From: Psammoneis japonica
Lineage: Eukaryota
Direction of reading: 5' to 3'
DNA length: 20,000 bases
NCBI GenBank assembly: GCA_008632985.1
Contig: QPGO01000192.1
Coordinates: 121,718 to 141,717 of the forward strand
Shown: piece after piece, positions 1,577 through 20,000 of the stretch
Layout: every line of letters begins with the position of its first letter
How positions within the stretch are numbered: the first letter of the stretch is position 1
Made by a program: the position numbers and the translations under genes
Notes under the pieces: generated by a model
The model's database searches: none
The model's input: only the letters and a program-made list of their open reading frames with translations
Told to the model about the DNA's origin: nothing

Positions 1577-3583
1577 ATGGTGGTGGTGCATCGTCATGTC
1601 TCTGCACTCTTGTCGCTGCTTACTCTGCTTCATAGAGCAGTAGTCACAGCATACCGCTATGCAGTGATTCCGAAAAGAATCAACAGTCCTTTTTTCGAGG
1701 CGGTCCGCCAGGGATGCGAGCATCAAGCACGGCAATACGACAATGTTGAATGCGTGTACACTGGACCTGCCGACACTACCAATTTGACAGAACGACAAGT
1801 GGAAATATTGACAGAGCTACTACCCACAATTGATGGGTTTGCCATTGCCGTCAAGGACGCTACCGTTATTGGAGATTTGATTGATTCTGCCGTGGAAACA
1901 GGCAAGTTTGCTCTAACTTTTGACAGTGATGCAGAGGACAGCATGCGAAACGCATACGTGGGGACCGACAATTACAAGTTTGGGAGGGAGCTTGCGCATG
2001 TCCTATTGCAGCTCGCACCAGAGGGCGGGTCGTATGGTATAATAACGGGAAGCTTTACGTCTCCAAACCTTGTTGCAAGGGTCAATGGAGTCCGTGATGG
2101 TTTGAAAAGGAGCGAGTGGGTCGAAGTGGCAAGCTCACCACGCAATGGTCTCGGAAAACCTTTGGTCGCGGTTCAAGAAATGGAAGATCTTGCGCAGCTA
2201 TATCCTGACATACGGGCCATTATCCCCGTTGGGGGTTGGCCCATGTACGATGAGGAAGCTTGGCAGTCGTTTGTAGGAAAGTACCCACGTATTGTCACGG
2301 TTTGCGCAGATGCGCTTGACATTCAAATTCAATTAATGAATCGAGGAATGGTCAATGGACTTGTTGGACAGCTTCCGTTTCAATTTGGGCAGTTTGCGAT
2401 TGAAAAGCTACACCTTCTCAAGACTAGTCAAGTCCAGGGCTTACCGGCCCCTTTTCCAAATGGCAGCATCTTCCCGACGGCAGTCCTTAATGTGTTACAG
2501 ATTCCACAGAATCTTCCGCCTTTGACGGAGGATATGAATTACATTGGATCCTTGGCCATACTTGGTTATGTGCTCTTTGGTATCATCGTAGCGTCATGCT
2601 TTGTGTTTGCGGGATGGACCTATGTCAATCGCAACTCTCCCGTGGTGCTACTCTCTCAACCGCCATTTCTTTATATGATTCTCGCTGGGGTTTTGATTAT
2701 GGGGGCAGCAATCATTCCTTTATCGATTGATGATGAGAAGCATTCTACAAGAGGATGTAGCATTGCTTGTATGTGCGTTCCTTGGTTAATTACCATTGGC
2801 TTTGTTACTACATTTTCGGCCCTCTTTAGCAAGACGTGGCGTCTCAACAGAATCCATAGGAACGCTCAGAACTTTCGACGCGTCCAGGTAACTGTGGCGG
2901 ACGTCCTCGTACCGTTTGCTTTGCTATTGACGTTGAACGTCATTGTCTTGCTTTGCTGGACTCTGATTGCACCTTTGCAATACGAACGAAGAGCATCAGC
3001 GGGGACAGACAATTGGAATCGGGTGTCAAGAAGTTACTACGGTGCCTGCTTTGGACCAGACGATGTCAAGGGAGGAGCTACTCCATATGTCGTGCTGCTT
3101 GTGGTGATTAACTTTTCGGTCATTATTGTTGCAAACATCCAGGCCTACAAGGCGAGAAAGATCCAGAAGATCTACATGGATGAGTCCAAATACATTGGCT
3201 ACATTATGCTCAGCATTCTCCAGGGGTGGATGGTGGGAATTCCGATACTGGCACTATCACGCGATGATCCTCAAGCATCCTTTGTCGTGTTGTCAGTCAT
3301 CATTTTTGCCACTTCAATGGCGACGCTCCTTTTCCTTTTCGTGCCAAAAATTACTACTGACAAGGAAAGCTTAACAGATGGCCAGAGGCATTCATCAACG
3401 GTTGAAGCAATTCGAAACGCAGTGGCGGTGAGCGCCTTGGATAAAGAAAGCGAGATAGGAACGATACAAGAGGAAGATTCATCAAACATTGCTTCGAACG
3501 CTCCGATAAAGAGGTCGGAAAATGGTGGAGACGGGACTACCGCACTCGCTAACGTTGATGAAACGCACGTTGGGCTGCGATGA
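1577..3583 (+). CDS. Class C (GABA-B-like, 7tm_3) GPCR with N-terminal periplasmic sugar-binding (RbsB-like, type I PBP) domain; intronless
   Basis: ATG 1577 starts a signal peptide (MVVVHRHVSALLSLLTLLHRAVVTA). The PBP-like region has NSPFFEAVRQGC, TFDSDA...YVGTDNYKFG, ARVNGVRDGL and GLVGQLPFQFG. Seven hydrophobic helices follow, with class C motifs SQPPFL, FSKTWR, DESKYI and LFVPKI. Confidence 0.9.
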   Translation: MVVVHRHVSALLSLLTLLHRAVVTAYRYAVIPKRINSPFFEAVRQGCEHQARQYDNVECVYTGPADTTNLTERQVEILTELLPTIDGFAIAVKDATVIGDLIDSAVETGKFALTFDSDAEDSMRNAYVGTDNYKFGRELAHVLLQLAPEGGSYGIITGSFTSPNLVARVNGVRDGLKRSEWVEVASSPRNGLGKPLVAVQEMEDLAQLYPDIRAIIPVGGWPMYDEEAWQSFVGKYPRIVTVCADALDIQIQLMNRGMVNGLVGQLPFQFGQFAIEKLHLLKTSQVQGLPAPFPNGSIFPTAVLNVLQIPQNLPPLTEDMNYIGSLAILGYVLFGIIVASCFVFAGWTYVNRNSPVVLLSQPPFLYMILAGVLIMGAAIIPLSIDDEKHSTRGCSIACMCVPWLITIGFVTTFSALFSKTWRLNRIHRNAQNFRRVQVTVADVLVPFALLLTLNVIVLLCWTLIAPLQYERRASAGTDNWNRVSRSYYGACFGPDDVKGGATPYVVLLVVINFSVIIVANIQAYKARKIQKIYMDESKYIGYIMLSILQGWMVGIPILALSRDDPQASFVVLSVIIFATSMATLLFLFVPKITTDKESLTDGQRHSSTVEAIRNAVAVSALDKESEIGTIQEEDSSNIASNAPIKRSENGGDGTTALANVDETHVGLR

Positions 3584-3879: not shown

Positions 3880-3963
3880 TAGTAGAGAGTAATGTCTATT
3901 CGAATCTGCCTGAGTACGTAGTAGTAGAGAGTAATGTCTATTCGAATCTGCCTGAGTACGTAG
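3880..3963. repeat. Perfect 42-bp tandem duplication within a TAG-rich tract between convergent genes
   Basis: tagtagagagtaatgtctattcgaatctgcctgagtacgtag occurs at 3880-3921 and 3922-3963. Confidence 0.95.
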
Positions 3964-4081
3964 TATGTAAGCATCAAGATTTCACCCGGTTTCTCGTATC
4001 TTTCATGTACCTATAACGCTTTGCGTTTACCAAGACGCTCGATCTCCTCATGTTGAACAGTTTATATAACTCTTCTTGGGT

Positions 4082-7000
4082 TTATGCGGCTTTTGAGGCA
4101 AAGAATTCCATTTTTCTCTTTGACGCTTTCGCGGACTTCACTTTTGGCATTTCAGGACGAAAAGCCTGCTCTGAAACGGTGCCTTCTCCCTCTGTTACAC
4201 CCTCTCCTACCCAAAATGTGACCATATCCCCTTTGCCCTTGACCGGAACCTTACCACGCTTGGTCAGCGGCACGGACGGATCCTGATCTCGGAGGAGGAG
4301 CGCAGAACGCTCAGAAGCCTGTATCCTCCCAGCCACACTGGTAGACTCCATTCTGCTGCTGACATTGACACAGTCCCCAAATAATCCATAACGAGGGTTC
4401 AACGAGCCTACAACGTTGCTGACGACTGGTCCAGAATGAAATCCTACGCGAATTTGGACGAAACCTTTTTCAGGGTCCTCTTCGTCAATCAAAGTATCAC
4501 CGGCTGCCTTGACAGCATCCAAGGCAAAGTGAGCGATTCTCTGCACATGGTCGTCCGATTGATCCTGAACAAGGTTGCAGACACCCATGAAAGCGTCGCC
4601 AATCGTTTCCACTTTTCTCGTGGGGTCGTGGAGGGAATTTTGGTTGTAAGCAAATTATAGAACACATTTTGCAAAGCACAGTACAGACCAAACAGAAGGA
4701 TTACCTTTGAACACTTCATGTTTTCGAGCAAGATTGTCAAATGCTAGATAGAGCCTATCCAGCATGTTGGACACCTTCAAAGGTTCCGACTCACTTGCAA
4801 TCGCGGTGAAGCCTACTATGTCAGAAAAGAAAATGGTGACGCAATCGTGCGACTCCGGCTCAACCTTCCGTCCGGCAAGTAGAGAATTGGCAATGTGTCT
4901 TGGGAATACATCATAAAGGACTTCTGCACTTCGTCCGCTCTTTTGCTTGGCAAAACGACTTCGACGGTCTACTCCTGGCTCAACTGTTTTACAGTCTAAC
5001 AACTTCAGACGCCGGTCGAGTTCTTTGGCAGTTGGACGAAGCTGTGGGTCTCCCTCCAAGCAGTCTTTCATTAACGTTGCAATCGTCGGAGGACATCCGG
5101 GGGGGATCTTGGGACGCTTGTTTATTCTTGGGTCGCATATTTGTCTAATCACGTCATCATAGCTCTCTCCCTGGAAAGGATCCTTCCTCGAGTACAATTC
5201 GTAAAGAATCATGCCGAAAGAATACAAATCAGATTCCGCGGTCGAGCCACTCTCGCGACGTAGAAGCTCTGGTGCCATCCAAAAAGGTGTCCCTTGTCCT
5301 TTTCTTTCCTTTCGATCACCCTTTCGCGCAAGTCCAAAGTCCGCCACCTTGGCTCTGAATCTCGAATCAATGAGCACGTTTTGACTCTTCAAATCGCCAT
5401 GAATAATTTGCGGCGTTGCTGAATGAAGAAACAAAATCCCTTGACAAATATCTCGCAAAACATTCAAGCAAAAGTCGCCTTCAATTTGAAACGTGTCGTT
5501 GTGAATCACATCGCTAATTTGACAAGAAAAATGAGCAAAGGTCAGTACCAGCATTTTGGGCTGACAGGTTCTTGTCATCGTCAACTTACTAAAGGGAGCC
5601 ATGATCCGCGTATTCCATTATAATCAAAGTGTCTTCATCCCATCTCGATGCCAACACAGCGCCCATGATCGTGCTGATACATGGGTGACGCAACTTGGTA
5701 AGAAATCTTATCTCTTGAAGGAAGCTTTGCTTCAGCTGAGCATTGCTGTTTCGGCTTCTGAGGCTGAAGAGAGAAGACCCTCGCGTTTTCTTTCCTTCTT
5801 CAGCCGCTTCGAGATCAACGGAAGCGAACGCGCTTTTTGAGCATCCGTCAGAGGTCACATGACTTTTGACTCCTTGCTCATTGCGCTTGTAAGCGCATTT
5901 TACTGCGACCTTTGTTCCACGATATTCAGCCAATAGGATGCTGCCGAAAGCACCTTCTCCGATTTTTTGAACCGGTGTTCCGAAATGGAGCTCCTCGCGA
6001 TTGACAATCCAGAGGGCATCAGCCTGCTTTCTCTTGCGCTGAACGTAAACGTATATTGCAACAACAGTAAGCAAGCAGACAGGTAACGCGATGATCAGAA
6101 CTAGAATCCAAATTTGAATGCAGGAACTTCCAATGGACACTGTGTCACCCGCACATTGACAGTTGCCGTCAACATCCGGTTCTCGCGGGTCGGAGCCATA
6201 GTCTGAAGAGCAATCTCTTGCTTGAACCTCAACTCGGAGCGGCGACTCGGAGATCTGTTCCCCGTTAACAAACACCTCGAGAATAACAGTACCAACTTTC
6301 GTTGCAGAGACCGAGAATTGATATATGTTCTGCGATTCGGAGCTTCGAACGACCGGTATTGTCCTGGAAATTTCACCTTCGTGTACCACAGCGGTAATGA
6401 GAACTCCTTCGCTCGCTCGTTCTTTATTGTCTTTGGCATAGAATGTCAGCGCTTTTGTTTGCTGAAAACCACCACAAAGGGACATCTTAGAGCATCCTGT
6501 CTCCATAACGTCCTCTTCTGGGAAAACATCGACATCGAATCCCTTCCGACATGGACTACACAGACACTGAAAGCCCTCTTCGCAAAAAAGTCCAACTTGC
6601 TCGCAACCTTCATCGATTTCCTTTTTCGACTTTTTGAAATACCCATTAGGACACGTTATTGCGTTATAGAGTTCCGCTGGACGGTTGCAGCGCCAGGTGT
6701 TCGTTATCGGATCCTTGTGAATGAAATCGTTGTCCTGCAGCATCGAGCGTATCTCTATGTACGAGAGTGTAGTTCTGAAATCAGCATACTTTCCATTTAT
6801 CAATGCCACTCTCGCATATTTTGCAATTTCTTTTGTCGTGTCACATCTTGCATCTACGTCAAACTCTTTCGGGAAAGAGAATGTTTCGCAGACTGACTGC
6901 CCAAGTTGCTCGATGCATTCTTCCAAGGCGAAACCCAACCTACCGTGAGCTGACAGAGAAAGCATAGCAGTTTGCACCTCAAGAGACACTTCTTCCGAAA

Positions 7001-7985
7001 TATGAGTTAGGGCGGCCAGGTTCCATTCGGGGTAGAGCTGAGTTGAGGCCTCAAAGCTTAAAGGCAGATACTGGGGAGTGAGAAGAAAACCCAACCGACT
7101 ACATACACGTGGCTTTGATGTCACTTACGGAAATGGTTCATTGAATAGCACGTTCGTCTTTGGTTCCAACACTTTGAAAAGGCTAGGATCAATTGCGAGT
7201 CCATCATTATCTTTTGTTCTTTCTATTTGATCAGTTCTTACGAATCCCGCATCGAACTCGCCGCTGAGAACTCCACGCACAATTCTTCCTTGGTTCCCTG
7301 TAAAGACGAGCTGCTTGAAATCGTTAATGAAGGATAGTCCAGCATTTTGAACTTCACGAAATTGCACCTGACCACCACCAAAAGATGAAATCGCGGCAGC
7401 AGCAACTATTTTCCCCTCTAAATCCTTCAAACTGGTAATCTCGGTATTGTTTGCTCTTGCCGTGATGACGCCAGCGAACTTTGGGAGATTGTACACTTGG
7501 TTTCCGACCACTCTCTTTGAAATATGGGAGACCAAAGACTCAGCTCCGTATTCGGATTCAATACACGAGAAGGGACTAGGACTGGTGTAAATGAAATCAA
7601 TCGTCTTTGCTTCCGTTTCGTCAAACATTGTCTGAAAATCAATGGGTTTCATTTCAAATCGGATAGGAGGGTCAAACTTCTTTCCTGCGGCTTCCGTCAA
7701 ATACTCAGTAAATGTAACACCATGCTGGGCAAATGCAGTTCCCGGTCCTCGAAACTCCAGAACACCAACGGTATATACTTGCTTGTGCCTTTTCGCATCG
7801 AACGGCCGAGGTTTGGTACATGCACCGCAAGAGACGTCCGTTTCAGTTGCCATCGGGAATGTCGTGCTGTTGTATGATTCTTCTGGTTCGTTTTCTTGCA
7901 AACGACGTTCCATTTTTGTGTTGCTAGAAACCCCTGTCACCAAAAGGTGACTAATGCAATAACTGAAAACGAAAAGTGCTCTCAT
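4082..7985 (-). CDS. Receptor-type nucleotide (probably guanylate) cyclase: signal peptide, PhnD-like phosphonate-binding PBP, Cys-rich and Ig/filamin-like region, TM, protein kinase, class III cyclase; ~1220 aa, 4 exons
   Basis: Exons 7985-7129, 7056-5590, 5513-4705 and 4611-4082 total 3663 nt and stay in frame. The joins read EPFP|FEASTQLYPEW, HGSLY|DVIHN and EVFKV|ETIGDAFM. Kinase motifs: GEGAFG, VAVK, HGDLKSQN, DFG, GTPFWMAPE. Cyclase motifs: VTIFFSDIVGFT, VETIGD, RVGFHSGPV, RYGLFGDCVNVSSRMES. Confidence 0.9.
4612..4704 (-). other. Intron 3 of receptor cyclase (93 nt)
   Basis: Donor GTAAT at 4704, acceptor AAAG at 4612. The join gives the canonical cyclase motif FKVETIGD. Confidence 0.85.
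5514..5589 (-). other. Intron 2 of receptor cyclase (76 nt)
   Basis: Donor GTAAGT at 5589, branch-like CTGAC at ~5541-5545, acceptor TAG at 5514. The join TA|C gives the kinase segment GSLYD. Confidence 0.9.
7057..7128 (-). other. Intron 1 of receptor cyclase (72 nt)
   Basis: Donor GTAAGT at 7128 and acceptor TAAG at 7057 restore the frame (CC|C TTT GAG). The nearby CAG at 7071 gives an immediate stop. Confidence 0.75.
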
Positions 7986-8651
7986 GACGATAGTTTGATT
8001 GTTTCACGATTGCCGGTTGGGACTGATGACTCTCGTCCGATATCCTGCCAGTTCACCCACTTCTACTCGTTAACTTTTTGTATGAGAAGCCTGTTACGGC
8101 AAAAAAGCAAGAGGATGTGGTGATTGATGATCGAAGCAGTCAATGCATCTGCAGCAACCCGTGATCATCCGCGGTTTGGGATCGATTCTTTTTAGGTTTG
8201 ACAAAAGGTCATTCAATCGTGCTTTCTGCTTGCGGCATAAATCCCCCCTATTGCCTTATGACCTCAACCGAAACGAAATGACTTCTTTGATGACTCCGGC
8301 TCCGCTGGATTTGTTGCTTTGTATTTTCCAGAGCTCGGAGCTCGAGATGGAAGATGGACGAGCTTCGACGAACCTCAATCGAGCGAGCGAGATCTCAACA
8401 CTCTGAACTCCACTTGTACTGTACCGGTAGTCAGTTACCATAGGACCCTCTAGACTATTCTACATGGCCTCCTGGACGCTAGTACTGGGAGATTCTTCAC
8501 AAATAAGCCACGGGGAATGACTCCACTTACTTCCGTAGCCCGGGTGCAGGACGCGCCAACTGCAGTTGACGTTGTGCAGATTATTTTTTACCGGATCCAT
8601 CTTCACAAGGTAGTTTGTTGAATTTGGTACTCCGTTTTGTAGCCTTTGTGG

Positions 8652-10265
8652 TCAAACATGCCCTTCTGCATCGCCTTCAGTCCAACAAACAGCCTCGAGA
8701 AGAGAGCCCACAATATACAATGATCCAGTGACACAAACTTCAACACCTTCGTGTTGCTTGTCGCCCATTGCACGACCTTTGATTCTCTCCAAAGCATCAG
8801 GCACGGTCAAGCTGGAAAAGATGGTTGAGCCACGGTTTGCAGTCCTTTCCAGATGCTTCCAAATGTTGGCCAAGGTATCCTGCCATGATGTCTCTTGTTG
8901 GTGATGAAGAATGTCGTCATCAGGATCGACCGGTAACCCGCATTCTTTCAACAAGTCACGTGCACTTGACTTGTTTACCATACTTGGGCGTTCCGTGTTG
9001 GAACGACAAAAGTAAACCGTATCAAACAGTGTAGATTTTTGCAGGATCTGCAAGAGCGGCACTGGGTTGCGTTCATGACTGCAATTGAAAATGAGCGCCT
9101 TCTCTGCGTCTGCGTTGTCGTTGCAGATGCTTTGAAACCAGTCCATGCACGCTAGCATCGATATGACAGTATGCGCCCCGTCGCAACGAAAATGAATAAA
9201 AGCATTGTTGGTCTCGACTCCAACCGTCTGACACCGTCCTGGCCACGACGCTTGAGCAAGTGCGTCCTGTACACCCATATCCGCAACAGTCATGTTTTGT
9301 ACCAATGCTTCACACAAATGTACCGCCAATTCAGCATTGATGCGTTGGTGTCTTCCCTCCAAACCAAGCTTGTATTCGTTCGGAATCGATTCTCCCTCAC
9401 CAACAACATGAAGCTCTTGTCCCATTCCTTCAGTATACGCGCATTGGCGAAGCACGGCAAGGACGGATGGAGGGTTGGTATTGACAGCAAACAAGCGCTT
9501 TGACTGGTTACTATCTGACGATGACAATGGCTGTAGCACTACTGGTTTTTCTTGATCGGTTTGTTCTTCTGATGGCCGAGGCGTCACATTTTCGTTGCTT
9601 GCTTTGTGCACAGCAAAGATTCCCCCCTTTTCCCATGCAATTTGTTCCAGTGTGTTTCCCAACACCCGCGTATGATCCAAATCCAACAAGGTCACACCAC
9701 AAATCACATTTTTATTTAAAGAATCAATCACATTGGTGGCATCGTACCGTCCGCCCATGCCCACTTCGAGAATCACAGCGTCCAGAGTCGGTTCTTGGTA
9801 GTTGGCAAAAACATACAGAGCCATGAGGGTCAGCATGCGAAAATATCCCGGCAATTGCGGCAATTCATCATCTTTATTGGATGGGTAGGTCTGTAGCTTT
9901 TCTCGTACATCAAAATACGCTTTTCCAAACACCTCTTTGGAAATCGGTTTGCCATTGACGCGAATGCGTTCTCGAATATCCACAAGGTGTGGAGACGAAA
10001 AGAGACCCGTATTCAACTTGTATCTTCTTCTGAGGATAGAATCACAAAAGGCCGCTGTGGAGCCTTTGCCTTTGGTTCCCGTAATATGAATAATGTTGTT
10101 TGGCAATTTTTTCGTTAGATGATTCAAGCGTTTCAGGTAGCATTGCATGTCGGACACGGTGTGAATGCGACGAGCAGCCGATTTTTCCAGAGCTTCTTTT
10201 GTGCGTGCTTGGTGGAGAGAAGAATAGAGTGCTGAAACCGCATCGTCAAATTGTGAGTCAGACAT
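8652..10265 (-). CDS. FPGS: Folylpolyglutamate synthase (eukaryotic FPGS/FolC family, Mur ligase fold)
   Basis: Motifs IHITGTKGKGST (P-loop), GLFSSPHLVDIRERIR, LEVGMGGRYDATN, LDHTRVLGNTLEQIAWEKGGIF, WPGRCQ, DGAHT and VTGSLYIVG. First in-frame ATG is at 10265 (MSDSQF). Confidence 0.95.
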   Translation of the reverse strand: MSDSQFDDAVSALYSSLHQARTKEALEKSAARRIHTVSDMQCYLKRLNHLTKKLPNNIIHITGTKGKGSTAAFCDSILRRRYKLNTGLFSSPHLVDIRERIRVNGKPISKEVFGKAYFDVREKLQTYPSNKDDELPQLPGYFRMLTLMALYVFANYQEPTLDAVILEVGMGGRYDATNVIDSLNKNVICGVTLLDLDHTRVLGNTLEQIAWEKGGIFAVHKASNENVTPRPSEEQTDQEKPVVLQPLSSSDSNQSKRLFAVNTNPPSVLAVLRQCAYTEGMGQELHVVGEGESIPNEYKLGLEGRHQRINAELAVHLCEALVQNMTVADMGVQDALAQASWPGRCQTVGVETNNAFIHFRCDGAHTVISMLACMDWFQSICNDNADAEKALIFNCSHERNPVPLLQILQKSTLFDTVYFCRSNTERPSMVNKSSARDLLKECGLPVDPDDDILHHQQETSWQDTLANIWKHLERTANRGSTIFSSLTVPDALERIKGRAMGDKQHEGVEVCVTGSLYIVGSLLEAVCWTEGDAEGHV

Positions 10266-10797
10266 GTCGTTGTGAAAAAGCAAATGATGAACGCCGCAAC
10301 GCAACAGAGCGCCATTGGCAATCGGTGATGGCCGGTCTGTCAATGTCGAAAAAAAGACAGGAAAAAGGAAAAAGGAAAAAGACTGATTTATGATTTCTGT
10401 CCGAAAGAGTTTAGAAAATGGAATTTTAGTTTTTCACATGATTTTACCCCATTTCTGTCATTCGGTGTCAGACACACAGGCCGACGACACATATTTTCAT
10501 ATACATATTCAGTCTTTAATATCATGAATGAAACAATCCGAACACGCCGACCATCCGTTCAGCACCCGGACCCCCCAGCAAACATCGTAGAATTTGTACT
10601 GGATTTCACGTTCAAGAAAACTCTATGATCACTTTGGGTCAGAAACACTCATGATATTGATATGTTCAACGGCATGGCATTTTGGAGTTAGTTTACCGCC
10701 GTCGGACCACTTTTGCATCACAACAACACTGTAGAGTCCTCCATTTATCCATACAAGTCCATATTCTATCCTGAGTTAGAGTTAGTACTCTCTTATA

Positions 10798-13215
10798 ATG
10801 AGTTCCATGCACAGATCTTCCAAACGCCGCCGCCGCAAGCCTCTCTTTCAGCACGCTACGCAGGTTTCTACGGTAGAAGAGCGGCTGTTGCAACAAGCCA
10901 TTCAAAACTCCAAAATCGACACAAAACGACCCGTCGATGGCAAGCTAGACATTCCCGAGGGTCCCACCTTTTATCCCACCCATGAAGAGTTTCAGGGCAA
11001 CCCGATTGATTATATCGAGTCGATTCGCCCGATTGCTCAGCAATACGGGATTTGCAAGATTGTCCCCCCGGCGGGGTGGAATCCGCCCTTTTGTGTCGAC
11101 ATGGAGTCACAGAAAAAGTTTGCCACCAAAGAACAGCTGCTGCACCGGCTACAGGAGGGAATTAGTTTTGGAGACGGAGTCGAATACACGGCGGCCGAGT
11201 ATCAGCGCGTAGCAAGTCTACGTGCAAAAGAGTGGAAGGCCAAGCATTATCCCGATCATGATTTGCTAAAGAGCGCTCGTGATTACACGGCTGCCAATAA
11301 CACGAGTGATGCTGATTCAGAAAAGAAGAACGATGCGAAAATCATGACGCCGGAGAATTTGGAACGTGAGTATTGGGATATCGTAGAGACCCATACGCGT
11401 GAAGTTTCAGTGGAGTATGGGAACGATGTGGAGAGCAACATTTATGGTTCGGGCTTTCCTCTATCCGAACGCGGCCGTGCCTTGTATGGAACCAATTCCA
11501 AATCAAATTTACCCGAACCCGAATTTGGTACCCCCGAGTATTACCGTGAAACGTGGTGGAACCTAAACAACATTCCCCAAGCACCCGATTCTGTGTTGCG
11601 GCATGTCAAGGTGGGAATCAACGGTGTCAATGTGCCGTGGATGTATTATGGAACACTGTTCTCGACCTTTTGTTGGCATAACGAAGACAATTATCTGTAC
11701 AGCATCAATTATCACCACAAAGGTGCTCCCAAACAGTGGTATGGAGTGCCGGGGACCAAGAAGGATTCTGACGGAGTGGAAAAAGTCTTCAAGAGCTACC
11801 TGTCCATGAAGCTACGGGACATTCCGGACTTGCTCCATCACATCACAACCATGTTTAGTCCGCGCTTGTTACAGAATGCCAAAGTTCCCGTGTACAGGAT
11901 GTTGCAGTATCCCGGCGAGTTTGTCGTGACATTTCCGCGTAGCTTCCACGCTGGCTTTAGTCTCGGTCCCAATGCCGGAGAAGCGGTCAATTTTGCCACG
12001 CATGATTGGATTGCTCATGGCGCCGACGCCAATGAGCGTTATCGGTCCTATGCCCGACCGCGGTCTTTTCTCACGACCGTCTCACCTTTACCATGGCGAA
12101 CCACTTGAAGGAACAAAAGCACTACGCACGTGTCGATTGCTCTTGGCTGAGCTGGAACGCATTGTCAAGGAAGAACTCTCGTTGCGACACAAACTTATTC
12201 AGGATGGTGTCCGGGATGTTTCCGATATGATTACGTTACCTCGGAATCGTTTGGACCAACTGGATGAGGCGAGTGCCGATTATGATGACAAGCGCTTGTG
12301 TTTTGCCTGCAAGCACATTTGCTTCTTCTCGGCAGTTGCGTGTGAGTGCAGCCAAACCAAGGTGAGCTGTCTTCGACACTCACATTACATGTGCCGGTGT
12401 GTGACGGAACGCAAGTATCTGATGATTTGGAGTGACGAGGAGGAAATGAACGGGACTCTCGAGAAAGTACGGGACTTTTGTAACGAGTTGAAACAAAAAG
12501 AGGGTGTCGGCGGGACGGAGGAAACGGCGGCGGTTGAACTTCCAGCAAAAGCACCCGGTGTAGAGCGAGATGCGGAAGCTCACAAGAACGAAGAGCTTAC
12601 TCTTGAACCGGTCAATGCGGATCCGAATTACTTTCAACCCGCGACGAGGGACTCTCCTATCGCTGTGCCTGTTGCAAAGAGAGCCAAAACTTCAATGGCT
12701 GGGGCATCCATGTCGTCCTATACCTCTGGACTCGTGGAAGATACGTTGAGGGCCTACACTGCCCAAACCGCAAAGAATGCCCGGACTCAATGTGCGGATC
12801 TCGCGGCTGGAGGTCCGTCGTCTGGATCTGGGAAAGGTCGTGGCGAAGCTGCTACTGTAGGAAATGGCGCCATCGAAAGCCCATCCGGAGGGGGAGTAAG
12901 TGCGGCTGCTACCGCTGGAAGTCCATCTACGGACGGGGAAGATTTGTTTGGTGATGACGCCACTGAAACGACAGCGGCTACAAACAATGGCCAAGTAATC
13001 GTGGTATAGTAGAAGGACTGCCCGCTGCGAACTTGAGTTCGCCCATTGCTAGTGCCGTCGAAGCACCATCACTTGTAAAGAATAGCGCCGATGAGACGCT
13101 CAGTGCATGCTCCACTCAAGCGACAACGAACAAAGGACCAAGTGTTGAAGTCGCCGGTCTTGCTGGGGTTGCGGGATCTCTGACGCCTAAACTGGAGGTC
13201 GAGGGCAGCACGTAG
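10798..13215 (+). CDS. JmjN-JmjC-C5HC2 zinc finger histone lysine demethylase (KDM5/JARID1-like) with three apparent single-base deletions; 5' end uncertain
   Basis: JmjN: PTFYPTHEEF...YGICKIVPPAGW. JmjC: WNLNN, PWMYYG, FCWHNED, PKQWY, FPRSFHAGF, EAVNFA. C5HC2: CFACKHICFFSAVACEC...CLRH...C.C. Three -1 shifts (~12060, ~12110-12128, ~12990) give a continuous protein ending at 13215. Confidence 0.85.
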
Positions 13216-13645
13216 GATTTATCATTATTTATATCAAGACATTACTATTCTCAAAATGCTGTGATTTGCTTGCGTTTGTGGACAACCGATTGTTTCGAAA
13301 CTGCAATCTTTTCTCTGTGGTGATATCCCACGAAGACTATTATTTTTGGATAGATCCTTGGATGTGGATAACGTCTTCTTCTCCTTGGCTTGCAACAGTC
13401 TTCAGTTTGCATCTGAGGTTGCGAGGCAGCGCAATTCCATTGCGCATTATTTTCAAACAAGAAATTGTCCGTAGCTGGAGGAGCAGGTACCGGTAGAGTT
13501 TGGAATGTAGGAACCGAAGAGCTGAAAACATGAAATGTTCGATAGACACGGACAAGTGACTCTGGGGAGGAAAGAATGAGACCCGTCGTACACGCAGCGA
13601 AAGGGTGCAAATCTGGGGTGTAAATTGGGTTCCAATCAAGGCAAT

Positions 13646-14647
13646 CTAGCTACTCCAAACCTCTTCCAGGGTCTCTCTAAAGATCTGATTAAGCTGTTCA
13701 ACCGGCACCTTCTGCATCCTCTTTTCAAACCTTTCCGCTTCAAGGCGAACGAATTGGTCTTCGAGGAATTGGCTTATCACGGGAATGACTGGGCCCTCAT
13801 CCATTTCGGCACCGGACCGTTTCTCCTCAATAAGATCTTTGATGGCAGTTTTCAATTCACCGTCGGATAGAGTTCCTTCAAGCAAGGCTTGAAACTCTGT
13901 CGGAACCACACCCAGCTGCCTTTCCAACCACATCATAGCAAGAAGCGGCCGCAACACATAAAAGTACTTCTTGGTCCGGATCCGATCGCCGCGGAGGTAA
14001 CTCCGAAAGTTGCTCTTTGCCATCGAGTAGTAATGATACATGCAGGAGACTGGCGAATATACCTTCGGGGCCAAGTCTCGCATCTTTTGAGCGGTAGTGT
14101 ATTGTTCCAAATAAACAATGGGTGATCCAAGCCACTCAAGCAGCGGCGGGTTTGATTTCTCAAAAAGCTTTAGCGCCTTGCGCAAATCCCACCCGTTAAT
14201 GTCGAGATCATTGTAAATTGGCAATTCAATCACATCTCGAAGTTGTTCAAGTTCAACAGAGAGATACCAATCGGTAGGATGCACGTAGAGAAAGCGAACA
14301 TCGTAATCACTGTTGGCGGAGGGGAAGCCCCAGGCCCGCGACCCAGACTCGCATGCGTACAGTACCTTGACGGCGTGATCCTTTTCGATTTGATGGATTT
14401 CATCCATGATTTGCTTCCGGACCCCATCATAAATTTCAAATGTTCCATCAGGTTCCGAGAATTTCGGCGTGCCACATAGCCGAGGTTTTGGGGTAGACAA
14501 TTTGAGTCTGTGCACCTCATTGTGCCACGGCAACATGATTTTCGAACTGCCGTGCGTTGGCTGTTTCTTACGCTGTGGCACGGACAACGAGGTCACCAAG
14601 GGTGATGAACCTAAAGAAACAAGGAATGCAAGCGACAACAACCTCAT
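13646..14647 (-). CDS. Bacterial-type Pol-beta superfamily nucleotidyltransferase (RlaP/YcgL-like, PF10127-type) with N-terminal signal peptide and transit-like extension; intronless, 333 aa
   Basis: Core motifs: VLYACESGSRAWGFPSANSDYDVRFLY (GS plus DxD), RDVIELP, LDINGWDLRKALKL..KSNPPLLEWLGSPIVY, KKYFYVLRPLLA. ATG 14647 starts MRLLSLAFLVSLGSSPLVTS-LSV. Confidence 0.88.
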   Translation of the reverse strand: MRLLSLAFLVSLGSSPLVTSLSVPQRKKQPTHGSSKIMLPWHNEVHRLKLSTPKPRLCGTPKFSEPDGTFEIYDGVRKQIMDEIHQIEKDHAVKVLYACESGSRAWGFPSANSDYDVRFLYVHPTDWYLSVELEQLRDVIELPIYNDLDINGWDLRKALKLFEKSNPPLLEWLGSPIVYLEQYTTAQKMRDLAPKVYSPVSCMYHYYSMAKSNFRSYLRGDRIRTKKYFYVLRPLLAMMWLERQLGVVPTEFQALLEGTLSDGELKTAIKDLIEEKRSGAEMDEGPVIPVISQFLEDQFVRLEAERFEKRMQKVPVEQLNQIFRETLEEVWSS

Positions 14648-15962
14648 TCTGTTACTTGGAATCAAATCAAGGTATTTGAAGTGAAACAAACCACACTTCT
14701 TGCGAACGCCTGCCTGCCTGGTGGCAATTCACGACGGTTTGTCTGTCACCGTCTTTTACGTATACGAGAAAACCTGAAACATAACAAGCAAAAGGAGTTT
14801 CCAACGACTCGTCAAGCACACGAAGCTTATCTCCCTTGTACGACGTCCATCTGCGACCAGCAATCATTCGTCGCAAAAACGCCACTCGATTGACTTAACC
14901 TCATTTGCCGGAAACTAGATCCACAAAATTTGACCACCTGGGTTTACAGTCAAACAAAAACCCAGTCAATCAACAGCCACACCTAATTATCTATCTTCAA
15001 ACATGAAATCCCGTGGGTGATGGAAAACAACGAGAAAGCGCCAATTCCGGGAGGAATCCGCCTCGTACATGAATCGTTATTGGTACTTTCAAAAAAGCAT
15101 CGCGCTCTTCCATACCATCACCCCAATAACACTCATCAGGAAAATATGGTAGAGGATGTGCAGAGCCTGTCTGGCAGTGACCAAATCAGGACAATCGAAC
15201 GTAATCAAGAGTGAAACAACCGAAAGAAAATTTCGATCTTTGTCGGGTCATTCTCTTGTTGCCTGTCAAGCATCGCATTCTTCCACACTAGCGCACATGG
15301 ACCATTCAGTAGGAGCGCAGTAGAGCCTGGAGTGTTCATCCTTCCATTAGCACCCGCAGAACTTTGATTTCCTTTCACATTCTCCAAATGCTGGCATGAT
15401 TGACGCGACCCCAAGAATCTCCTGCGCAGCGCGAGGACACGCATCTGGCTGCATGCGAGTTGTTCTTCTTTTGTTATGTGTTTCAAAAAACATCAAAGAG
15501 ATGACAGAAATGAAAGATTTGCAAGCAGATTTTCAACATGGACAAATGAAAAGGGTGAGAGAGATGCGTCAATTGTCAGTTGGCGCAGCTTGGGCGGGTT
15601 GTCGGATTGGGGTCGTTTTTGGGCGAAAAAAATTCTAGAGATTCTATGGTTTTCATCGGCGTCCCCACCAGAAGACCATTGTCGCCAATGGGGAGGCACA
15701 TGACCGTTTGCTATGGCATTGCTCCGCTTTCTATTGAAGATCGAGATCATTGTTTCGGAGCAAAGATTATTGATATCAATGACGAAGAATCGCTTGGGGA
15801 AAATCATCGCATGGATGTGGTGCCAACAATGGCGCATGCTGGGGATGGAACTTTTCTGGGCGGACGCAAATATGAGGTGCATCATTATTGTATTAAAATT
15901 TTCAAATTGACCTTACAATGGTTAGTGACAAGTGTGACACCGTCAAGATAAGTCACCACGGT

Positions 15963-17449
15963 TTATGGTGTTTCTTTGCATTGCCGTGATTGCTGCCTCG
16001 AAGGTTTTCTCGGGTTTCTTCTTTGCTTGCGATGATTCTGTTTGTTCTGATTTCCTGAAAGGCCTACGCTATACTTTTTCCAATGAGGATACTTGTGATT
16101 TTTGACAGGCTTTCCCGCATGAATACCCTTTTGATTTCCCCAACGATTAGTTGCGTGCCATGGGCGCCAGTTTGGGTTGATCCTTGTAGGTGGACGGGTC
16201 GTCTCATATTGTGCCGTGGGTGCCCTTGTTGATGGCGCCGGGGTAGTTGGCTCGGGAGTTGGTGGAGCGGTTGGTGATGAGGTGGGACTCATTGTTGGGA
16301 CCCTTGTTGCTGGCGCCGGGGTAGTTAGCTTGGGAGTCGGCTGAGCGGTTGGGGACAATGTTGGACGTAAAGTTGGCGCTTGGGTCGTTGGCTCGAGGCT
16401 TGGCGGAGGCGTTGGTGTCAGAGTGGGACGAGCTGTAGGTGTTTCAGACGGAATCGAGAGATCCGAACACCAAGTGCGTTTGCTCGCGTCCAGCACTTTC
16501 GTCATGTCACAAATCGTTTCATACAACCAGCCTAGCACATGACTTAGGCGCACGTAGACTTCTGGGCATGTAATTGTATCAGCACAACCGAAGGCACCCC
16601 ACGAAACAACTCCGACTTGGATGTCTGCTGCTGGATCTCGTCCTCGAATGACTAGAGGCCCACCAGAGTCGCCATAGCATGGTCCGTCGACTTCAGAGAA
16701 CGCGCACATCATCTCATCTGTGAAGGTAAGCTCCATCTCGTCGAAAATCTCCGAGCAATCATCGTTTGTCAATGATTTGACAGAGGTCTCTAGCAAGAAA
16801 TCTGAATCAAGATAGTCTTCTGTCTCGCCAAACCCCATTACAGTCAGATCTGTTCCTGCAGCGGGAATGCTCTTTACATGGTTTATGGCGACGGGGGAAG
16901 CTGCAGATATACCGCGCAGTCGAATCAACATGACGTCATTCTCATCGGTAAAAAAGTTGTACTGCGGATGAGGGATCACTTCCGCAACTCTAAACCTCTC
17001 AAAGCTATCTTCAGAGTCAAACACACTGTATTTGCCAATGCTCACGAACTTCAAGGATTCGTGGTTGCAATGAGCAGCGGACAAGACGACATTGGGAGCG
17101 ACGAGCGATCCTCCGCAAAATTCATTTCCTTTTCTGTCTTCTAAGGATGCAAAATATGGATACCTGTTTCTCTTTGCATTACTTCCGCCAATGATAAACG
17201 TTGATGGTGGCGGATAACTTCTGTCTCGTTTCTCCGGCTTCTGAGATAGAGCGTGGGTTGGAGGAAAGCGATGTGTACAGTGAGTGAAATTCTTGGAAGC
17301 AAAAACACTTGCAATCGTTTTTAGCTCACCTTGTTTAAATGACCAAGGCCTCGTGGCCCGTCTAGACGGAAAACATTCACTTGATCTCCATTGGCGTTCT
17401 GACATCGAATCATAAAATGAAGGACGATGATGACACTAAAGACCTTCAT
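15963..17449 (-). CDS. Secreted S1A (trypsin/chymotrypsin fold) serine protease with Pro/Thr-rich stalk and basic C-tail; 2 exons, ~465 aa
   Basis: Exon 1 (17449-17330) encodes the signal peptide MKVFSVIIVLHFMIRCQNANG. Exon 2 (17240-15963) has IIGG, CGGSLV, LSAAHC (His), ENDVMLIRL (Asp), CYGDSGGP (Ser) and GVVSWG. Confidence 0.92.
16200..16445 (-). repeat. Coding Pro/Thr (PTxxPT) repeats including an imperfect 78-bp (26-aa) tandem duplication
   Basis: cccttgttgatggcgccggggtagttggctcgggagttgg at 16223 vs cccttgttgctggcgccggggtagttagcttgggagtcgg at 16301. Confidence 0.85.
17241..17329 (-). other. Intron of serine protease (89 nt, phase 0)
   Basis: AAG|GTGAGC donor, CTCAC branch-like site, pyrimidine-rich tract and TCTCAG acceptor. 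It joins the signal-peptide exon in frame with the protease ORF. Confidence 0.88.
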
Positions 17450-17876: not shown

Positions 17877-20000
17877 ACAGCACGAGACGGACCTTTCGCG
17901 CTTCGAGTCGTCACACGGCACGGGGGCGCATGGTGGCGGCCATTGCCACCCGCTTTCATCGGCATCCACCACCGACAGTCGAGTGCGCTTCCTGTTGCAC
18001 GACTCCATGTTTTTGTTTTGAAGGAGACCTGTTGAGTCTGTGAGAAATGATGCTTTTTGCTGCATTGTCTGGAGTCCCCAGCAGCAAAGCTTCACACACC
18101 AGTGACGCAAAGTTGCCAAGTGCAGCCCTCCTTTCCTTTTTTCAACAGGCCAGCCTTCTTGCAGCCTGGGCTTTGGGCAAACATGAGATGGAGAGGTCAG
18201 CTTGGTGCTCAACGCTTGTCTCCTCTGTCTGCTTTTTCAGCGCTGCACGCATCCCTTTCATTTTCTGTGTGCTGCATCGAAGCAGCTTGCCAGCACACAG
18301 AATTTTTCCAAAAAGAGAAACACACCATGCTGCAATGCAGAGGGCTGTGTGCAGCTCAGCACTGCAAGCTCAACAACAGGGGCTCCTTCAGGCATTTTTG
18401 TTTGTTTGAGTGAGAGCAAACACAGGGGCTCAGCAGAAAGAGGAAAACCGAGCCTTTTCCACCCGTGTCTGAAAGGGCATGAAGAGCAGGTGCAACACAG
18501 GAGGGGGCTCTGGTGGGCAAAAGAAGTCAGCAGCAAAGTTGTTCAGCCAAGACCCCAGTCGGTGCCACCAAAGCCATTGCATCAGCACAGAGGGAGTGGC
18601 AGGTCAGGGGCAGGAGTGCCAACTTTCAACATGGAAAATGGGGCCGACAAAGAGTGTGTGCTGCAGCCATGTGTGTGCAATCAACACAGAAAGTTTTGTG
18701 CACACTGCCCTTTTGCAACAGGTTTCACTGCTGTCCTTTTGGATGTTTTTTCTGGCTTGAACACAGACACAGCATGGGCCTTTTGGGCAGAAGGGGGGCA
18801 AGCAGAGCTGTGACCTTGCCAAGTGTGCACTTGTCATCAACCATGGCAAAACAACATCATCACCCATGACCTTGATTGGGGTGCCCAACATTTGACAAAT
18901 GTGCGGCAGTTTTTTCACAGCCTGGGCTTTGTTTTCACAGCCTGGGCTTTGTTGTTGGGGCAGATGAGGGGTGCGCAAAAGTCTTTGCCAGCCCCAAGGT
19001 GCACGGGGGATGACTGCACAACAAGACACAACTGTCATCTCTGCAAGCCACTTTGGCACCTGGCTGAGCTTGAGCTTGAGACTGCCAGGGTCATCACAAC
19101 AGCACAAGAAGAGGGGTCCGCACACCACCACCATCTTCTTCCATTTGGAGAACAAGGCTTGTTGCTCCTGAAGAGGAGACAATGGTGGGGTGATGTGGTG
19201 CAACAGTTGGCACCAGAGCTTCTGCATTTCTTGAAGACAAGTGTGCCAAGCTGTCGCTGGCGAGGGATGGCTCTGGGTGCTGAATCCCAGCGCTGCACCA
19301 GCAATGTGTGACAAGGCAATGGGCTCCGCTGCCCCCCATCTTGCTGTGGCCCAGAAAGTGTGCAAGAGGCAATGCTGGTGGCAGACAGAGCTTGTGACAT
19401 CCAACAGGCTCCTGCCATGGATGGTGCACAAGGCCACCAGGCCAACATCTTCTGGCAAATGATGGCCAACAACAACACCCTCATGACGAGGGGTGCAGAA
19501 GAACGTGGTGTTTGTTGGCAGTGCAGCTGCTGGAAATGATGGCAACCACCCGGCACATGCGCAGTCATTGATGCTCCTCCAATCTGACTCAGTCAGTGGT
19601 GATCAGAGTGCAGAGCATCTTGTGCACTGCCTTCAGGGTGATGGCATGGGCACCACGCATTGTGCACCACATGGTCAGACATCAGTGTGCACACACAAAT
19701 GTTGCACTGGATGCCTGGTGTACTCACAGAAAAAAGTGCCAAACTGCCACACTTTTCCCCAGAGGTGAGAGCAAGAAAAGCTGTGCGTGCTGGTTTTTTT
19801 GAAATGAACAGCCAGCAAGATAATTTGAGAACATGCAACATTGAGCCACATCACTCAAATTGACACCCAACAGACAAGCATCAAGAAATTGTTCCCCCAA
19901 ACTGCTTCTCATTGGTGGCTGCTCTTTTGAGGAAGACTCCTTTGATTTTGCTGAGGGGCGGGGGGCACAGACAAACAGAAAAACAGCACACAACAGCATC
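17877..20000. other. TpA-erased, CpG-depleted, TpG/CpA-rich degenerate block (right flank; probable decayed repeat or gene remnant)
   Basis: Manual scan finds only 2 TA (~19721, ~19821) in ~2.1 kb and roughly 25 CG in 18010-20000. Many overlapping Cys/His/Gln-rich ORFs with almost no Tyr. Confidence 0.9.
18912..18953. repeat. 20-bp tandem duplication
   Basis: ttttcacagcctgggctttg occurs twice in tandem. Confidence 0.9.

Follow-up and report, generated by a model that had tools for sequence, protein, structure and literature searches.

A diatom gene of probable bacterial origin for an RlaP-family nucleotidyltransferase with a putative plastid-type presequence

The P0001 locus and its surroundings

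The window, by which we mean the whole 20-kb stretch of DNA analysed here, contains on its reverse strand a stop-free reading frame for a protein of 333 amino acids, P0001 (Table 1). The first in-frame ATG, at position 14647, has a purine at -3 and is preceded by an in-frame stop codon, the stop-to-stop frame starting at 14728. Because the protein is collinear with its bacterial homologues, the gene is considered to be free of introns. An earlier, sequence-only reading of this DNA had described an intact, intronless core with GS and DxD motifs, and this description holds: the 333 codons are uninterrupted, the Pfam domain is present at full length and both motifs were found.

Table 1. Positions of the P0001 gene, the parts of its product and an intron in a neighbouring gene
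Feature	Positions	Strand	Remarks
RlaP-family nucleotidyltransferase precursor gene (P0001)	13646..14647	(-)	complete intronless CDS, 333 codons plus stop (13646-13648)
Signal-peptide-like start, residues 1-20	14588..14647	(-)	MRLLSLAFLVSLGSSPLVTS; one basic residue, hydrophobic core 4-12, small residues at -3/-1 (VTS-L)
Transit-peptide-like stretch, residues 21-68	14444..14587	(-)	predicted disordered, basic, Ser/Thr/Pro-rich; no acidic residues in the first 20 positions; no bacterial counterpart
Mature RlaP body, residues 69-333	13649..14443	(-)	N-terminal Pol-beta-type nucleotidyltransferase domain and C-terminal helical domain; Pfam part, residues 77-324, at 13676-14419
GS motif, G102-S103	14339..14344	(-)	Pol-beta nucleotidyltransferase fold
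DxD motif, D114-Y-D116	14300..14308	(-)	putative metal-binding carboxylates
GT...AG intron, 93 nt	4612..4704	(-)	splits the guanylate-cyclase motif HEVFK/VETIGDAF of a neighbouring gene

The Pfam domains of the neighbouring genes are those of a JmjN/JmjC/zf-C5HC2 protein, whose architecture we take to be that of a eukaryotic chromatin-type demethylase, a receptor kinase-guanylate cyclase, a receptor that combines a periplasmic-binding-protein domain with 7tm_3, and a trypsin. The intron in the guanylate-cyclase motif identifies the contig as DNA of a spliceosomal eukaryote. For the adjacent folylpolyglutamate synthase (FPGS), nine of the best 120 relatives listed have an organism name, which in every case is that of a diatom. 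With eukaryotic domains on both sides, the spliced neighbour and these diatom names, the proposed setting among intron-bearing eukaryotic genes is well documented. No RNA ligase domain was detected in the 20-kb window, in agreement with the earlier remark that no partner ligase is visible there.

The flanks of P0001 contain 10 small open reading frames, none of which matched a Pfam family. No direct repeats and a single weak inverted repeat were found around the gene, and both Rfam and the tRNA scan returned zero matches, so nothing in these scans hints at a partner RNA or a mobile element. GC3 was 0.57 for the RlaP core versus 0.42-0.57 for the neighbours, and the RSCU correlation of the core with the neighbouring genes was 0.16, compared with 0.03-0.67 among the neighbours themselves, the RSCU correlations being slightly off because the pooled host table included an FPGS row with 17 stops that was out of frame. 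Codon usage is uninformative here, as it neither backs nor contradicts a long residence of P0001 in this genome.

Family, fold and predicted activity

P0001 is an intact member of the RlaP family. It matches Pfam PF10127 with 315 bits (cut-off, 23 bits) and an E-value of 5.2e-94, with residues 77-324 aligned to profile positions 2-248 of 249, which bears out the family assignment made earlier. The GS and DxD motifs lie in a block, YACESGSRAWGFPSxxSDYDVRF, that is common to all 16 sequences covering this region in an alignment of 17 (A1); the remaining sequence, P0032, lacks the block. D149 and D154 are invariant throughout this alignment, and either of them could be the third conserved catalytic aspartate. 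The AlphaFold2 model of P0001 has a confidently folded core from about residue 70, with strands between residues 94 and 154, helices between 155 and 331, and a terminal helix at 317-331. A Foldseek search of the PDB with this model returned as best matches the kanamycin nucleotidyltransferases ANT(4'), which are two-domain nucleotidyltransferases (E-value 1.9e-6), while the sequence itself matched no PDB entry. NCBIfam offered no family for P0001 and the ESM Atlas returned bacterial RlaP clusters only.

The sequence-only reading described the family as one linked to RNA repair by genome context, a description that has since been overtaken. RlaP had been predicted from gene context only until a 2025 preprint (PMC12776372, doi 10.64898/2025.12.29.696909) reported that members of the family extend damaged RNA ends; all of this work concerns bacteria and phages. 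The two enzymes with known activity, from Pseudomonas fluorescens and P. aeruginosa, add one or two NMPs to RNA 3'-OH ends, prefer mimics of damaged tRNA and use three conserved aspartates (PMC12776372). The crystal structure of PfRlaP comprises an N-terminal nucleotidyltransferase domain and a C-terminal helical domain closed by the terminal helix; the genes of the characterised RlaPs belong to RtcB operons, a neighbouring ligase gene (RtcB or a 5'-phosphate ligase) is a feature of some members only, and PF10127 includes a small number of eukaryotic members (PMC12776372, as far as the accessible text goes).

The proposed family link to RNA ligases is therefore correct for some members but does not extend to the subclade of P0001: RtcB was found beside RlaP in one of the 15 closest named bacterial loci by Pfam scan and in 18 of 160 fetched loci by tblastn. 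As these relatives are mostly stand-alone, the substrate and pathway of P0001 may differ from those of the characterised RlaPs. By analogy with the Pseudomonas enzymes, we consider it fairly probable that P0001 catalyses nucleotidyl addition to RNA 3' ends.

Relatives and probable bacterial origin

Of the 7999 scored candidates, 7993 are relatives. Among the matches listed, those without an N-terminal extension are 257-265 aa long and up to 70% identical to P0001, and identity to the RlaPs of named bacterial genomes, which represent more than 20 phyla, is 47-59%. We built an 88-row tree from P0001, six eukaryote-type proteins, P0004, P0005, P0007, P0009-P0031 and L001-L055 (P0033-P0121 and L056-L160 were left out) and a careful 50-row tree from a subset of the same rows. 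In the larger tree P0001 and the six relatives form one clade (SH-aLRT 96), to which P0004 and P0005, both lacking an extension, are sister (support 95). In the 50-row tree the P0001 clade received UFboot 94 and SH-aLRT 77 and was present in 92% of 200 bootstrap trees, values that fall below the strict threshold; the group made up of this clade with P0004 and P0005 received 100/93 and lies inside the bacterial RlaPs. P0005 is labelled as belonging to a Chloroflexota metagenome-assembled genome (MAG), on a 5.5-kb contig, and P0004 is taken as bacterial. With the clade nested inside bacteria at good support, horizontal origin is the best reading, and the phylogeny favours the acquisition that had been proposed from the sequence.

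Four of the six relatives in the P0001 clade have a signal-peptide-like extension of their own, in differing forms, while the bacterial relatives have none. One clade member, L081/L082, adjoins an ANF_receptor/7tm_3 gene that is split across frames, which marks its contig as eukaryotic. Gene context verifies eukaryotic status for the window and for L081/L082 only; for the other members we infer it from their extensions. A profile search with the clade recovered no further member among the best 120 matches. None of the six relatives comes from NCBI, UniRef, EukProt or MMETSP, and the same sources return named diatoms for the neighbouring folate gene. An old, widespread eukaryotic clade had been named earlier as the pattern that would speak against transfer; the best 120 matches of either P0001 search include no named eukaryote, and the clade is placed within bacteria.

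On these grounds P0001 is very likely of bacterial origin and fixed in a eukaryotic genome, and the distribution of its relatives speaks for transfer from bacteria to a narrow lineage of diatoms and against an old eukaryotic family. A viral route was considered and rejected, because the relatives on viral contigs, 19 in number, are all at most 51% identical to P0001 and stand further off than the bacterial ones.

The N-terminal extension, alternative readings and comparison with known systems

Diatom proteins bound for the plastid, which has four membranes, carry a two-part presequence that first directs them through the ER membrane and then into the organelle; among the residues accepted at +1, leucine was reportedly the weakest in the 2007 work of Gruber et al. 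In P0001, the bacterial start (MY.I.E.VR.EI) is matched by residues ~69-80, so residues 1-68 represent an addition, and AlphaFold2 pLDDT is below 50 at residues 1-3 and 5-68. Signal peptide and cleavage sites were read heuristically, from hydropathy and the (-3,-1) rule. Among windows of nine residues, LSLAFLVSL (residues 4-12) is the most hydrophobic, with a Kyte-Doolittle value of 2.49, and the rule is satisfied after residues 11, 13 (SLG-S), 14 (LGS-S), 20 (VTS-L) and 22 (SLS-V). The 15 residues that follow VTS include three K/R, no D/E and four S/T, and the K/R and D/E counts are the same at the other candidate sites; F/W/Y/L at +1 is found with cleavage at VTS-L, not with SLG-S, LGS-S or SLS-V. 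The hydrophobic start and the basic Ser/Thr/Pro-rich stretch described earlier are thus present, with the core at residues 4-12 and three basic and no acidic residues after VTS. The cleavage predicted at VTS-L agrees with the (-3,-1) rule but is one candidate among several rule-conforming sites.

The criteria for plastid proteins given in the available part of the ASAFind 2.0 paper (PMC12136025) are F/Y/W/L at +1 and an almost acid-free stretch of 15 positions, the lack of an aromatic residue or Leu at +1 being the mark of periplastidial proteins. In all five full-length members of the clade, P0001 included, the N-terminus is hydrophobic (Kyte-Doolittle 2.4-3.4), and each contains a (-3,-1) site that would place F, W or L at +1 (VTS-L, SLS-L, VES-F, LRS-W and VAS-F). 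The number of acidic residues in the next 15 positions is zero in three of the five, one in P0008 (at +2) and two in P0068, where a transit-like stretch is nearly lacking and the net charge is not positive. P0001 and P0002 share 16 identities over their first ~45 residues, so the tag is older than their split. Entry of P0001 into the secretory route through the predicted signal peptide appears likely, and plastid targeting is plausible; for the plastid stroma as the final destination we would give even chances.

The extension could instead consist of a signal peptide or anchor and a disordered linker. In that case the bacterial RlaP, fixed in the diatom as before, would reside in the ER lumen, the periplastidial compartment, the endomembrane system or outside the cell, where it would nucleotidylate a protein or a small molecule; we know of no RNA in any of these locations. 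Several observations fit such a reading, namely the three rule-conforming sites that lack F/W/Y/L at +1, as periplastidial proteins do according to the accessible text on ASAFind 2.0 (PMC12136025), the near absence of a transit-like stretch in P0068 and the acidic +2 residue of P0008, the scarcity of RNA ligase genes beside the close bacterial relatives, and the nearest solved folds, which are those of aminoglycoside nucleotidyltransferases with small-molecule substrates. However, the Foldseek matches are weak (TM 0.38-0.47, 10-12% identity) and speak for a shared Pol-beta fold only, and in every full-length clade member there is a site with F, W or L at +1, with 15 acid-free residues after it in three of the five. 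We regard a destination and substrate of this kind as rather unlikely.

It is also conceivable that the upstream ATG is unused, translation starting at M38 or M81 to give a cytosolic (possibly mitochondrial) protein, or that the gene is silent, an unexpressed recent acquisition in decay. A search for RNA runs at positions 12500-16500 found none; among the relatives, one is truncated at the 5' end and lacks the catalytic half, so the gene would be dispensable in at least one lineage; P0068 continues with unrelated residues after ...EEKRK, which suggests that some copies are broken or intron-bearing; and a DNA contig carries a non-synonymous variant of P0001, Y97C, at a conserved Tyr/Phe position. 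Against these signs stand the intact 333 codons of P0001 with every catalytic motif present, the partial conservation of the presequence in P0002, the in-frame hydrophobic N-terminal extensions of four other clade members, the purine at -3 of the ATG, and terminal branches whose lengths in the P0001 clade (0.03-0.42) are similar to the median over all terminal branches of the trees, 0.28-0.35; an unused start or a silent gene therefore seems improbable. Least probable of all, and in our view very improbable, is that no transfer took place, P0001 being either an old, vertically inherited eukaryotic gene or bacterial contamination mis-joined to diatom DNA. The small number of eukaryotic PF10127 members mentioned in the available text of PMC12776372 would be compatible with an old gene. 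As for a mis-join, the only DNA run found to contain the gene, from a single study, may be the source sample of the assembly, and hence not independent, and among the contigs listed from this run no single one extends into the neighbouring coding regions. Yet a 2622-nt contig of the run spans positions 13093-15712 at a depth of 54.9, which is in line with that of the flanks (mostly 47-100, with one bin at 26.5), allelic variants occur throughout P0001 and both flanks, and eukaryotic genes lie on either side in the window. The nesting of the clade within bacterial sequences (100/93), its absence from the named eukaryote sources that yield diatoms for the neighbouring gene, the 68-residue extension lacking in the bacterial homologues and the greater distance of the 19 viral loci argue in the same direction.

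Overall, we lean slightly towards the combined reading of P0001 as a gene in the diatom nucleus, bacterial by origin, that codes for an intact RlaP (PF10127) nucleotidyltransferase of the Pol-beta type with a plastid-type presequence. The gene would have passed from a bacterium into the ancestor of a diatom group that is small and has been sampled poorly, the nearest extension-less relatives including the one labelled as a Chloroflexota MAG. After the transfer the gene would have gained ~68 new N-terminal codons, the new residues forming a signal peptide and a basic, acid-free, hydroxylated stretch that may direct import into the plastid. The mature enzyme (residues ~69-333), judging from the biochemistry of the family, would bind NTPs and a divalent metal held by D114, D116 and the third aspartate and would extend RNA at the 3'-OH end by one or two nucleotides; its substrates could plausibly be plastid tRNAs or rRNAs that have been trimmed or damaged.

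To our knowledge, dedicated RNA end repair in plastids is essentially unexplored. In the literature on RlaP, PF10127 and COG3541 we found no work on algae or organelles, and an organelle-addressed member of the family has not been described. It is possible, albeit doubtful, that this diatom group maintains in its plastid a bacterial enzyme that mends RNA 3' ends, replacing nucleotides that plastid tRNAs or rRNAs lose when nucleases or photo-oxidation damage them, possibly in concert with a ligase addressed to the same organelle. It would then be the first nucleotidyltransferase of the RlaP type to act in RNA repair within a eukaryotic organelle. If true, such an enzyme would bring RNA end-repair chemistry into plastid RNA metabolism and would provide a clear case of a transferred bacterial gene that gained a targeting tag. 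With one mature domain and differing tags, the five related proteins would then constitute a natural series for finding the presequence features that matter. Gene transfer into diatoms is common, and the localisation and expression of P0001 are still predicted; for these reasons P0001 is, for now, a well-founded lead and not a discovery.

Like the ANT(4') enzymes (PDB 6un8, 1kny), the P0001 model places a helical domain after a Pol-beta nucleotidyltransferase domain, but ANT(4') belongs to another family with small-molecule substrates, and the similarity is limited to 10-12% identity, TM scores of 0.34-0.48 and an rmsd of ~8 Å. The Pseudomonas RlaPs, as far as the accessible text of PMC12776372 describes them, share with P0001 the full-length Pfam domain, the two-domain layout predicted for P0001, the conserved aspartates and, as expected for P0001, the addition of one or two NMPs. 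In contrast to these enzymes, P0001 is encoded in a eukaryotic nucleus, has a 68-residue signal/transit-like extension and has no RtcB/RtcA operon or ligase in the window. The stand-alone RlaPs of Chloroflexota, Planctomycetota and other phyla (P0005, L001, L003 and L010) are 50-70% identical to P0001 over the mature domain, collinear with it and, like it, mostly without an adjacent RNA ligase; they differ in length (257-265 aa versus 333 aa), in the lack of an extension and in their bacterial gene contexts.

With diatom presequences of the ASAFAP type, as presented in the available part of the ASAFind 2.0 paper (PMC12136025), P0001 shares the hydrophobic start, small residues at -3 and -1, a possible Leu at +1 and 15 acid-free residues. 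Its putative motif is nevertheless weak, with Leu instead of Phe at +1 and with competing cleavage sites. Finally, a phylogenetic screen for bacterial HGT by Vancaester et al. (doi 10.1101/2020.01.24.918219) attributed 3-5% of the genes in nine sequenced diatoms to such transfer and, in the portion of the work available, reported a shorter total intron length for HGT genes in several pennate diatoms. The available main text of that study has zero occurrences each of nucleotidyltransferase, RNA repair and RNA ligase. The pattern of transferred genes that it describes is nonetheless one that P0001 fits, being nested among bacterial sequences and intronless in the company of intron-bearing neighbours.

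The RlaP gene and its diatom setting

The RlaP gene is a single unbroken frame, 333 codons long before its stop; the frame's first ATG, at 14647, lies downstream of an in-frame stop and carries an A at -3. Pfam matches residues 77–324 of the product (P0001) to profile positions 2–248/249 of PF10127 (315 bits, E 5.2e-94), and the alignment displays the hallmarks of Pol-beta nucleotidyltransferases, namely G102-S103 and D114-x-D116 together with D149 and D154, which are invariant. Because the protein is collinear with its bacterial homologues, its core is free of introns, and the intact, intronless RlaP core with GS and DxD motifs described by the sequence-only reading was confirmed. No NCBIfam model matches the protein, and sequence-level comparison with the PDB detected no solved structure. 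An AlphaFold2 model built with a 17-sequence alignment is confidently folded from about residue 70 onwards, with strands at 94–154 followed by helices, the last at 317–331; pLDDT is below 50 for residues 1–3 and 5–68. For this predicted structure, the top Foldseek match in the PDB, kanamycin nucleotidyltransferase ANT(4') (E 1.9e-6, TM 0.38–0.47, about 11% identity), shows the common two-domain nucleotidyltransferase fold and nothing closer.

The RlaP gene sits in a diatom nuclear setting, among intron-containing eukaryotic genes as previously proposed (Table). A GT...AG intron of 93 nt splits the cyclase motif HEVFK|VETIGDAF in the large receptor gene. Diatoms account for every one of the nine organism-named entries among the 120 matches listed for the folylpolyglutamate-synthase-like gene (Seminavis, Fistulifera, Attheya, three Cyclotella, Nitzschia and two Cylindrotheca), with identities of up to 51%. 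Frames of 332, 208, 185 and 165 aa, none with a Pfam match, overlap where the GC content of the window peaks (0.51–0.54).

Features of the window and of loci carrying RlaP relatives
Sequence	Feature	Coordinates	Strand	Remarks
Window	Periplasmic-binding-domain and 7tm_3 receptor	1472–3583	+	Pfam
Window	Large multi-exon receptor: phosphonate-type periplasmic-binding, filamin-like, protein kinase, guanylate cyclase	4082–8003	-	Pfam; four frames
Window	Intron	4612–4704
Window	Folylpolyglutamate-synthase-like gene	8652–10433	-	Pfam
Window	JmjN/JmjC/zf-C5HC2 demethylase	10786–13009	+	Pfam; two frames
Window	RlaP ORF	13646–14647	-
Window	Trypsin-like protease	15963–17405	-	Pfam
Window	Long overlapping frames	18187–19602	both
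L081	RlaP remnant	4898–5557		C-terminal two thirds, residues 120–331
L082	RlaP remnant	2386–3045		C-terminal two thirds, residues 120–331
L005 (Anaerolineae)	NAD-dependent DNA ligase gene and RlaP	3890–5959		LigA-type domains
L022 (Anaerolineales)	PIN-domain gene	5603–5977		nuclease-type

DNA contigs from one study carry allelic differences across the RlaP gene and both flanks. One of them, of 2622 nt, spans 13093–15712 at a depth of 54.9, and the flanking bins have depths of mostly 47–100, with one at 26.5. Because this DNA run is perhaps the assembly's own source, and because none of the DNA contigs listed extends into the neighbouring coding regions, these contigs provide weak, non-independent support against contamination. 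A contig of run X1 differs from the window at 14358 (C instead of T on the plus strand), which turns the TAC (Tyr) of codon 97 into TGC (Cys) just ahead of the ACESGS motif, a position occupied by Tyr or Phe in all aligned homologues. A second difference in run X1 lies at 14649, two bases 5' of the start codon; both may be allelic variants.

Relatives and origin of the gene

In a collection of 5.8 billion proteins, 7993 of the 7999 scored candidates were relatives. Most of the best matches in this collection are 257–265 aa long and lack the N-terminal extension; those with a name, 56–70% identical, derive from MAGs of Chloroflexota, Planctomycetota or Brocadia. Each search for relatives covered the best 120 matches. 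A set with one genome per prokaryotic species yielded 590 confirmed relatives, the best 80 of which are 47–59% identical and come from more than 20 phyla, with Bacillota (25) and Chloroflexota (11) foremost. Viral contigs contributed 19 relatives, each at most 51% identical.

The window protein groups with six eukaryote-type clusters, P0002, P0003, P0006, P0008, P0032 and P0068, with eukaryote status confirmed by gene context for the window and for L081/L082, the two loci of P0032. The 311-aa P0002 is 69% identical to the window protein over its full length. Hydrophobic N-terminal extensions are also present in P0002, P0006, P0008 and P0068 (four of the six clusters), the N-terminus of P0003 is cut, and P0032 encodes only the C-terminal part. 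A profile search from the seven members revealed no further member among the best 120 matches. NCBI, UniRef, EukProt and MMETSP supplied none of the six clusters, although these sources did yield named diatoms for the neighbouring folate gene. In P0068/P0128, the sequence is family-like up to ...LIEEKRK and ends in 13 unrelated residues, which suggests a lineage-specific intron gain or a frameshift.

An 88-row maximum-likelihood tree unites the window protein and its six relatives in one clade (SH-aLRT 96) with P0004+P0005 as its sister (95); P0005 is labelled a Chloroflexota MAG, and clade and sister fall inside a Chloroflexota-rich bacterial region. In a 50-row tree the eukaryote clade has UFboot 94 and SH-aLRT 77 and is recovered in 92% of 200 bootstrap trees, and its union with P0004+P0005 has 100/93. 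An old, widespread eukaryotic family fits poorly with a clade nested in bacteria and with so narrow a distribution among the best 120 matches of each search. The phylogeny supports the proposed horizontal acquisition, and its simplest reading is that the forebear of a narrow group of diatoms, itself poorly sampled, received the gene once from a bacterium. Such a transfer is in itself ordinary, because bacterial genes are reported to account for 3–5% of the gene complement of diatoms (Vancaester et al. preprint).

The contigs of L081 and L082 are 99% identical, and their RlaP, which lacks the catalytic half, is 77% identical to the window protein and 87% to P0002. The L081 contig is eukaryotic, since among the genes beside its RlaP is an ANF_receptor/7tm_3 receptor that is split over frames. 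A tblastn search of L081, covering 4.9 kb upstream and 8 kb downstream, gave no N-terminal half. Upstream of RlaP in this contig pair lies a long frame with in-frame stops and no Pfam match. This RlaP probably represents a truncated pseudogene, and an insertion may have cut it.

Predicted targeting of the N-terminal extension

Residues 1–68 of the window protein are extra, since the start of bacterial homologues (MY.I.E.VR.EI or shorter) aligns only to residues ~69–80. The extension opens with M-R and a hydrophobic LSLAFLVSL (Kyte-Doolittle 2.49). Heuristically, the (-3,-1) rule is fitted at LVS|L, SLG|S, LGS|S, VTS|L and SLS|V. The 15 residues past VTS| include three K/R, four S/T and no D/E (four K/R and no D/E in the first 20), so the signal-like start and basic stretch of the sequence-only reading were recovered. 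The diatom criteria of ASAFind 2.0 comprise a signal-peptide cleavage motif and a transit peptide with F, Y, W or L at +1; the first 15 positions of plastid proteins are almost without acidic residues and positive in net charge, whereas periplastidial proteins lack such a +1 residue and contain acidic residues (PMC12136025). If cleaved at VTS|L, the window protein would fit the plastid criteria, both site and call being heuristic.

All five full-length clade members combine a hydrophobic N-terminus (Kyte-Doolittle 2.4–3.4) with a (-3,-1) site that places F, W or L at +1: VTS|L in the window protein, SLS|L in P0002, VES|F in P0006, LRS|W in P0008 and VAS|F, near the classical ASAFAP wording, in P0068. 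No comparable hydrophobic core was found in P0011 and P0014, two bacterial calls with an extension. Acidic residues are absent from the 15 positions past the site in three of the five members; P0008 has one there, and P0068, with a very short transit-like part, has two. P0001 and P0002 share 16 identities over the first ~45 aligned positions, so the tag of at least this pair goes back to a shared ancestor. The F/W/L at +1 across the clade is consistent with plastid import but no proof of it, Leu being common in such regions. What is new is an RlaP with a predicted eukaryotic targeting extension: the papers found on RlaP, PF10127 or COG3541, none of which concerns algae or organelles, describe no organelle-addressed RNA end-repair nucleotidyltransferase.

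Biochemical function and ligase context

The earlier assignment to RlaP stands, but the function of the family no longer derives from genome context only. According to a preprint by Carruthers, Fatma and Huang, two Pseudomonas RlaPs accept RNA as the sole cellular macromolecule, put one or two NMPs (dAMP too) onto its 3'-OH ends, favour cleaved-tRNA mimics and can restore aminoacylation of a tRNA missing a nucleotide (PMC12776372). The fold described there combines a nucleotidyltransferase domain with a helical domain and three conserved Asp, and the similarity network includes few eukaryotic members, on which its description does not comment (PMC12776372).

From family membership, we infer that the diatom RlaP would share this chemistry, in a pathway that may or may not involve a ligase. 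The obvious substrates would be plastid tRNAs and rRNAs, provided that the protein reaches the stroma. RNA is not known to occur in the ER lumen or the diatom periplastidial space, so a non-plastid destination would imply another acceptor.

The suggested association with RNA ligases does not hold for this subclade. By Pfam, RtcB adjoins RlaP in only one (L008) of the 15 closest named bacterial loci, and the sole other ligase there, found once, is a housekeeping-type NAD-dependent DNA ligase. By tblastn, an RtcB-like gene occurs in 18 of 160 loci (8/80 genome, 10/80 metagenome); six of the eight genome loci are from Paenibacillaceae (Paenibacillus, Cohnella or Gordoniibacillus), and the loci nearest the eukaryote clade, within the 80 named genome loci, gave no RtcB-like match. 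In L005, RlaP lies directly downstream of an NAD-dependent DNA ligase gene, an adjacency that may be chance with a housekeeping gene. In L022, the PIN-domain gene directly precedes RlaP and overlaps its start, and the two may form a toxin-repair pairing. The Pseudomonas RlaP genes lie between rtcB and rtcA (PMC12776372), an arrangement from which the parent subclade of the diatom gene differs.
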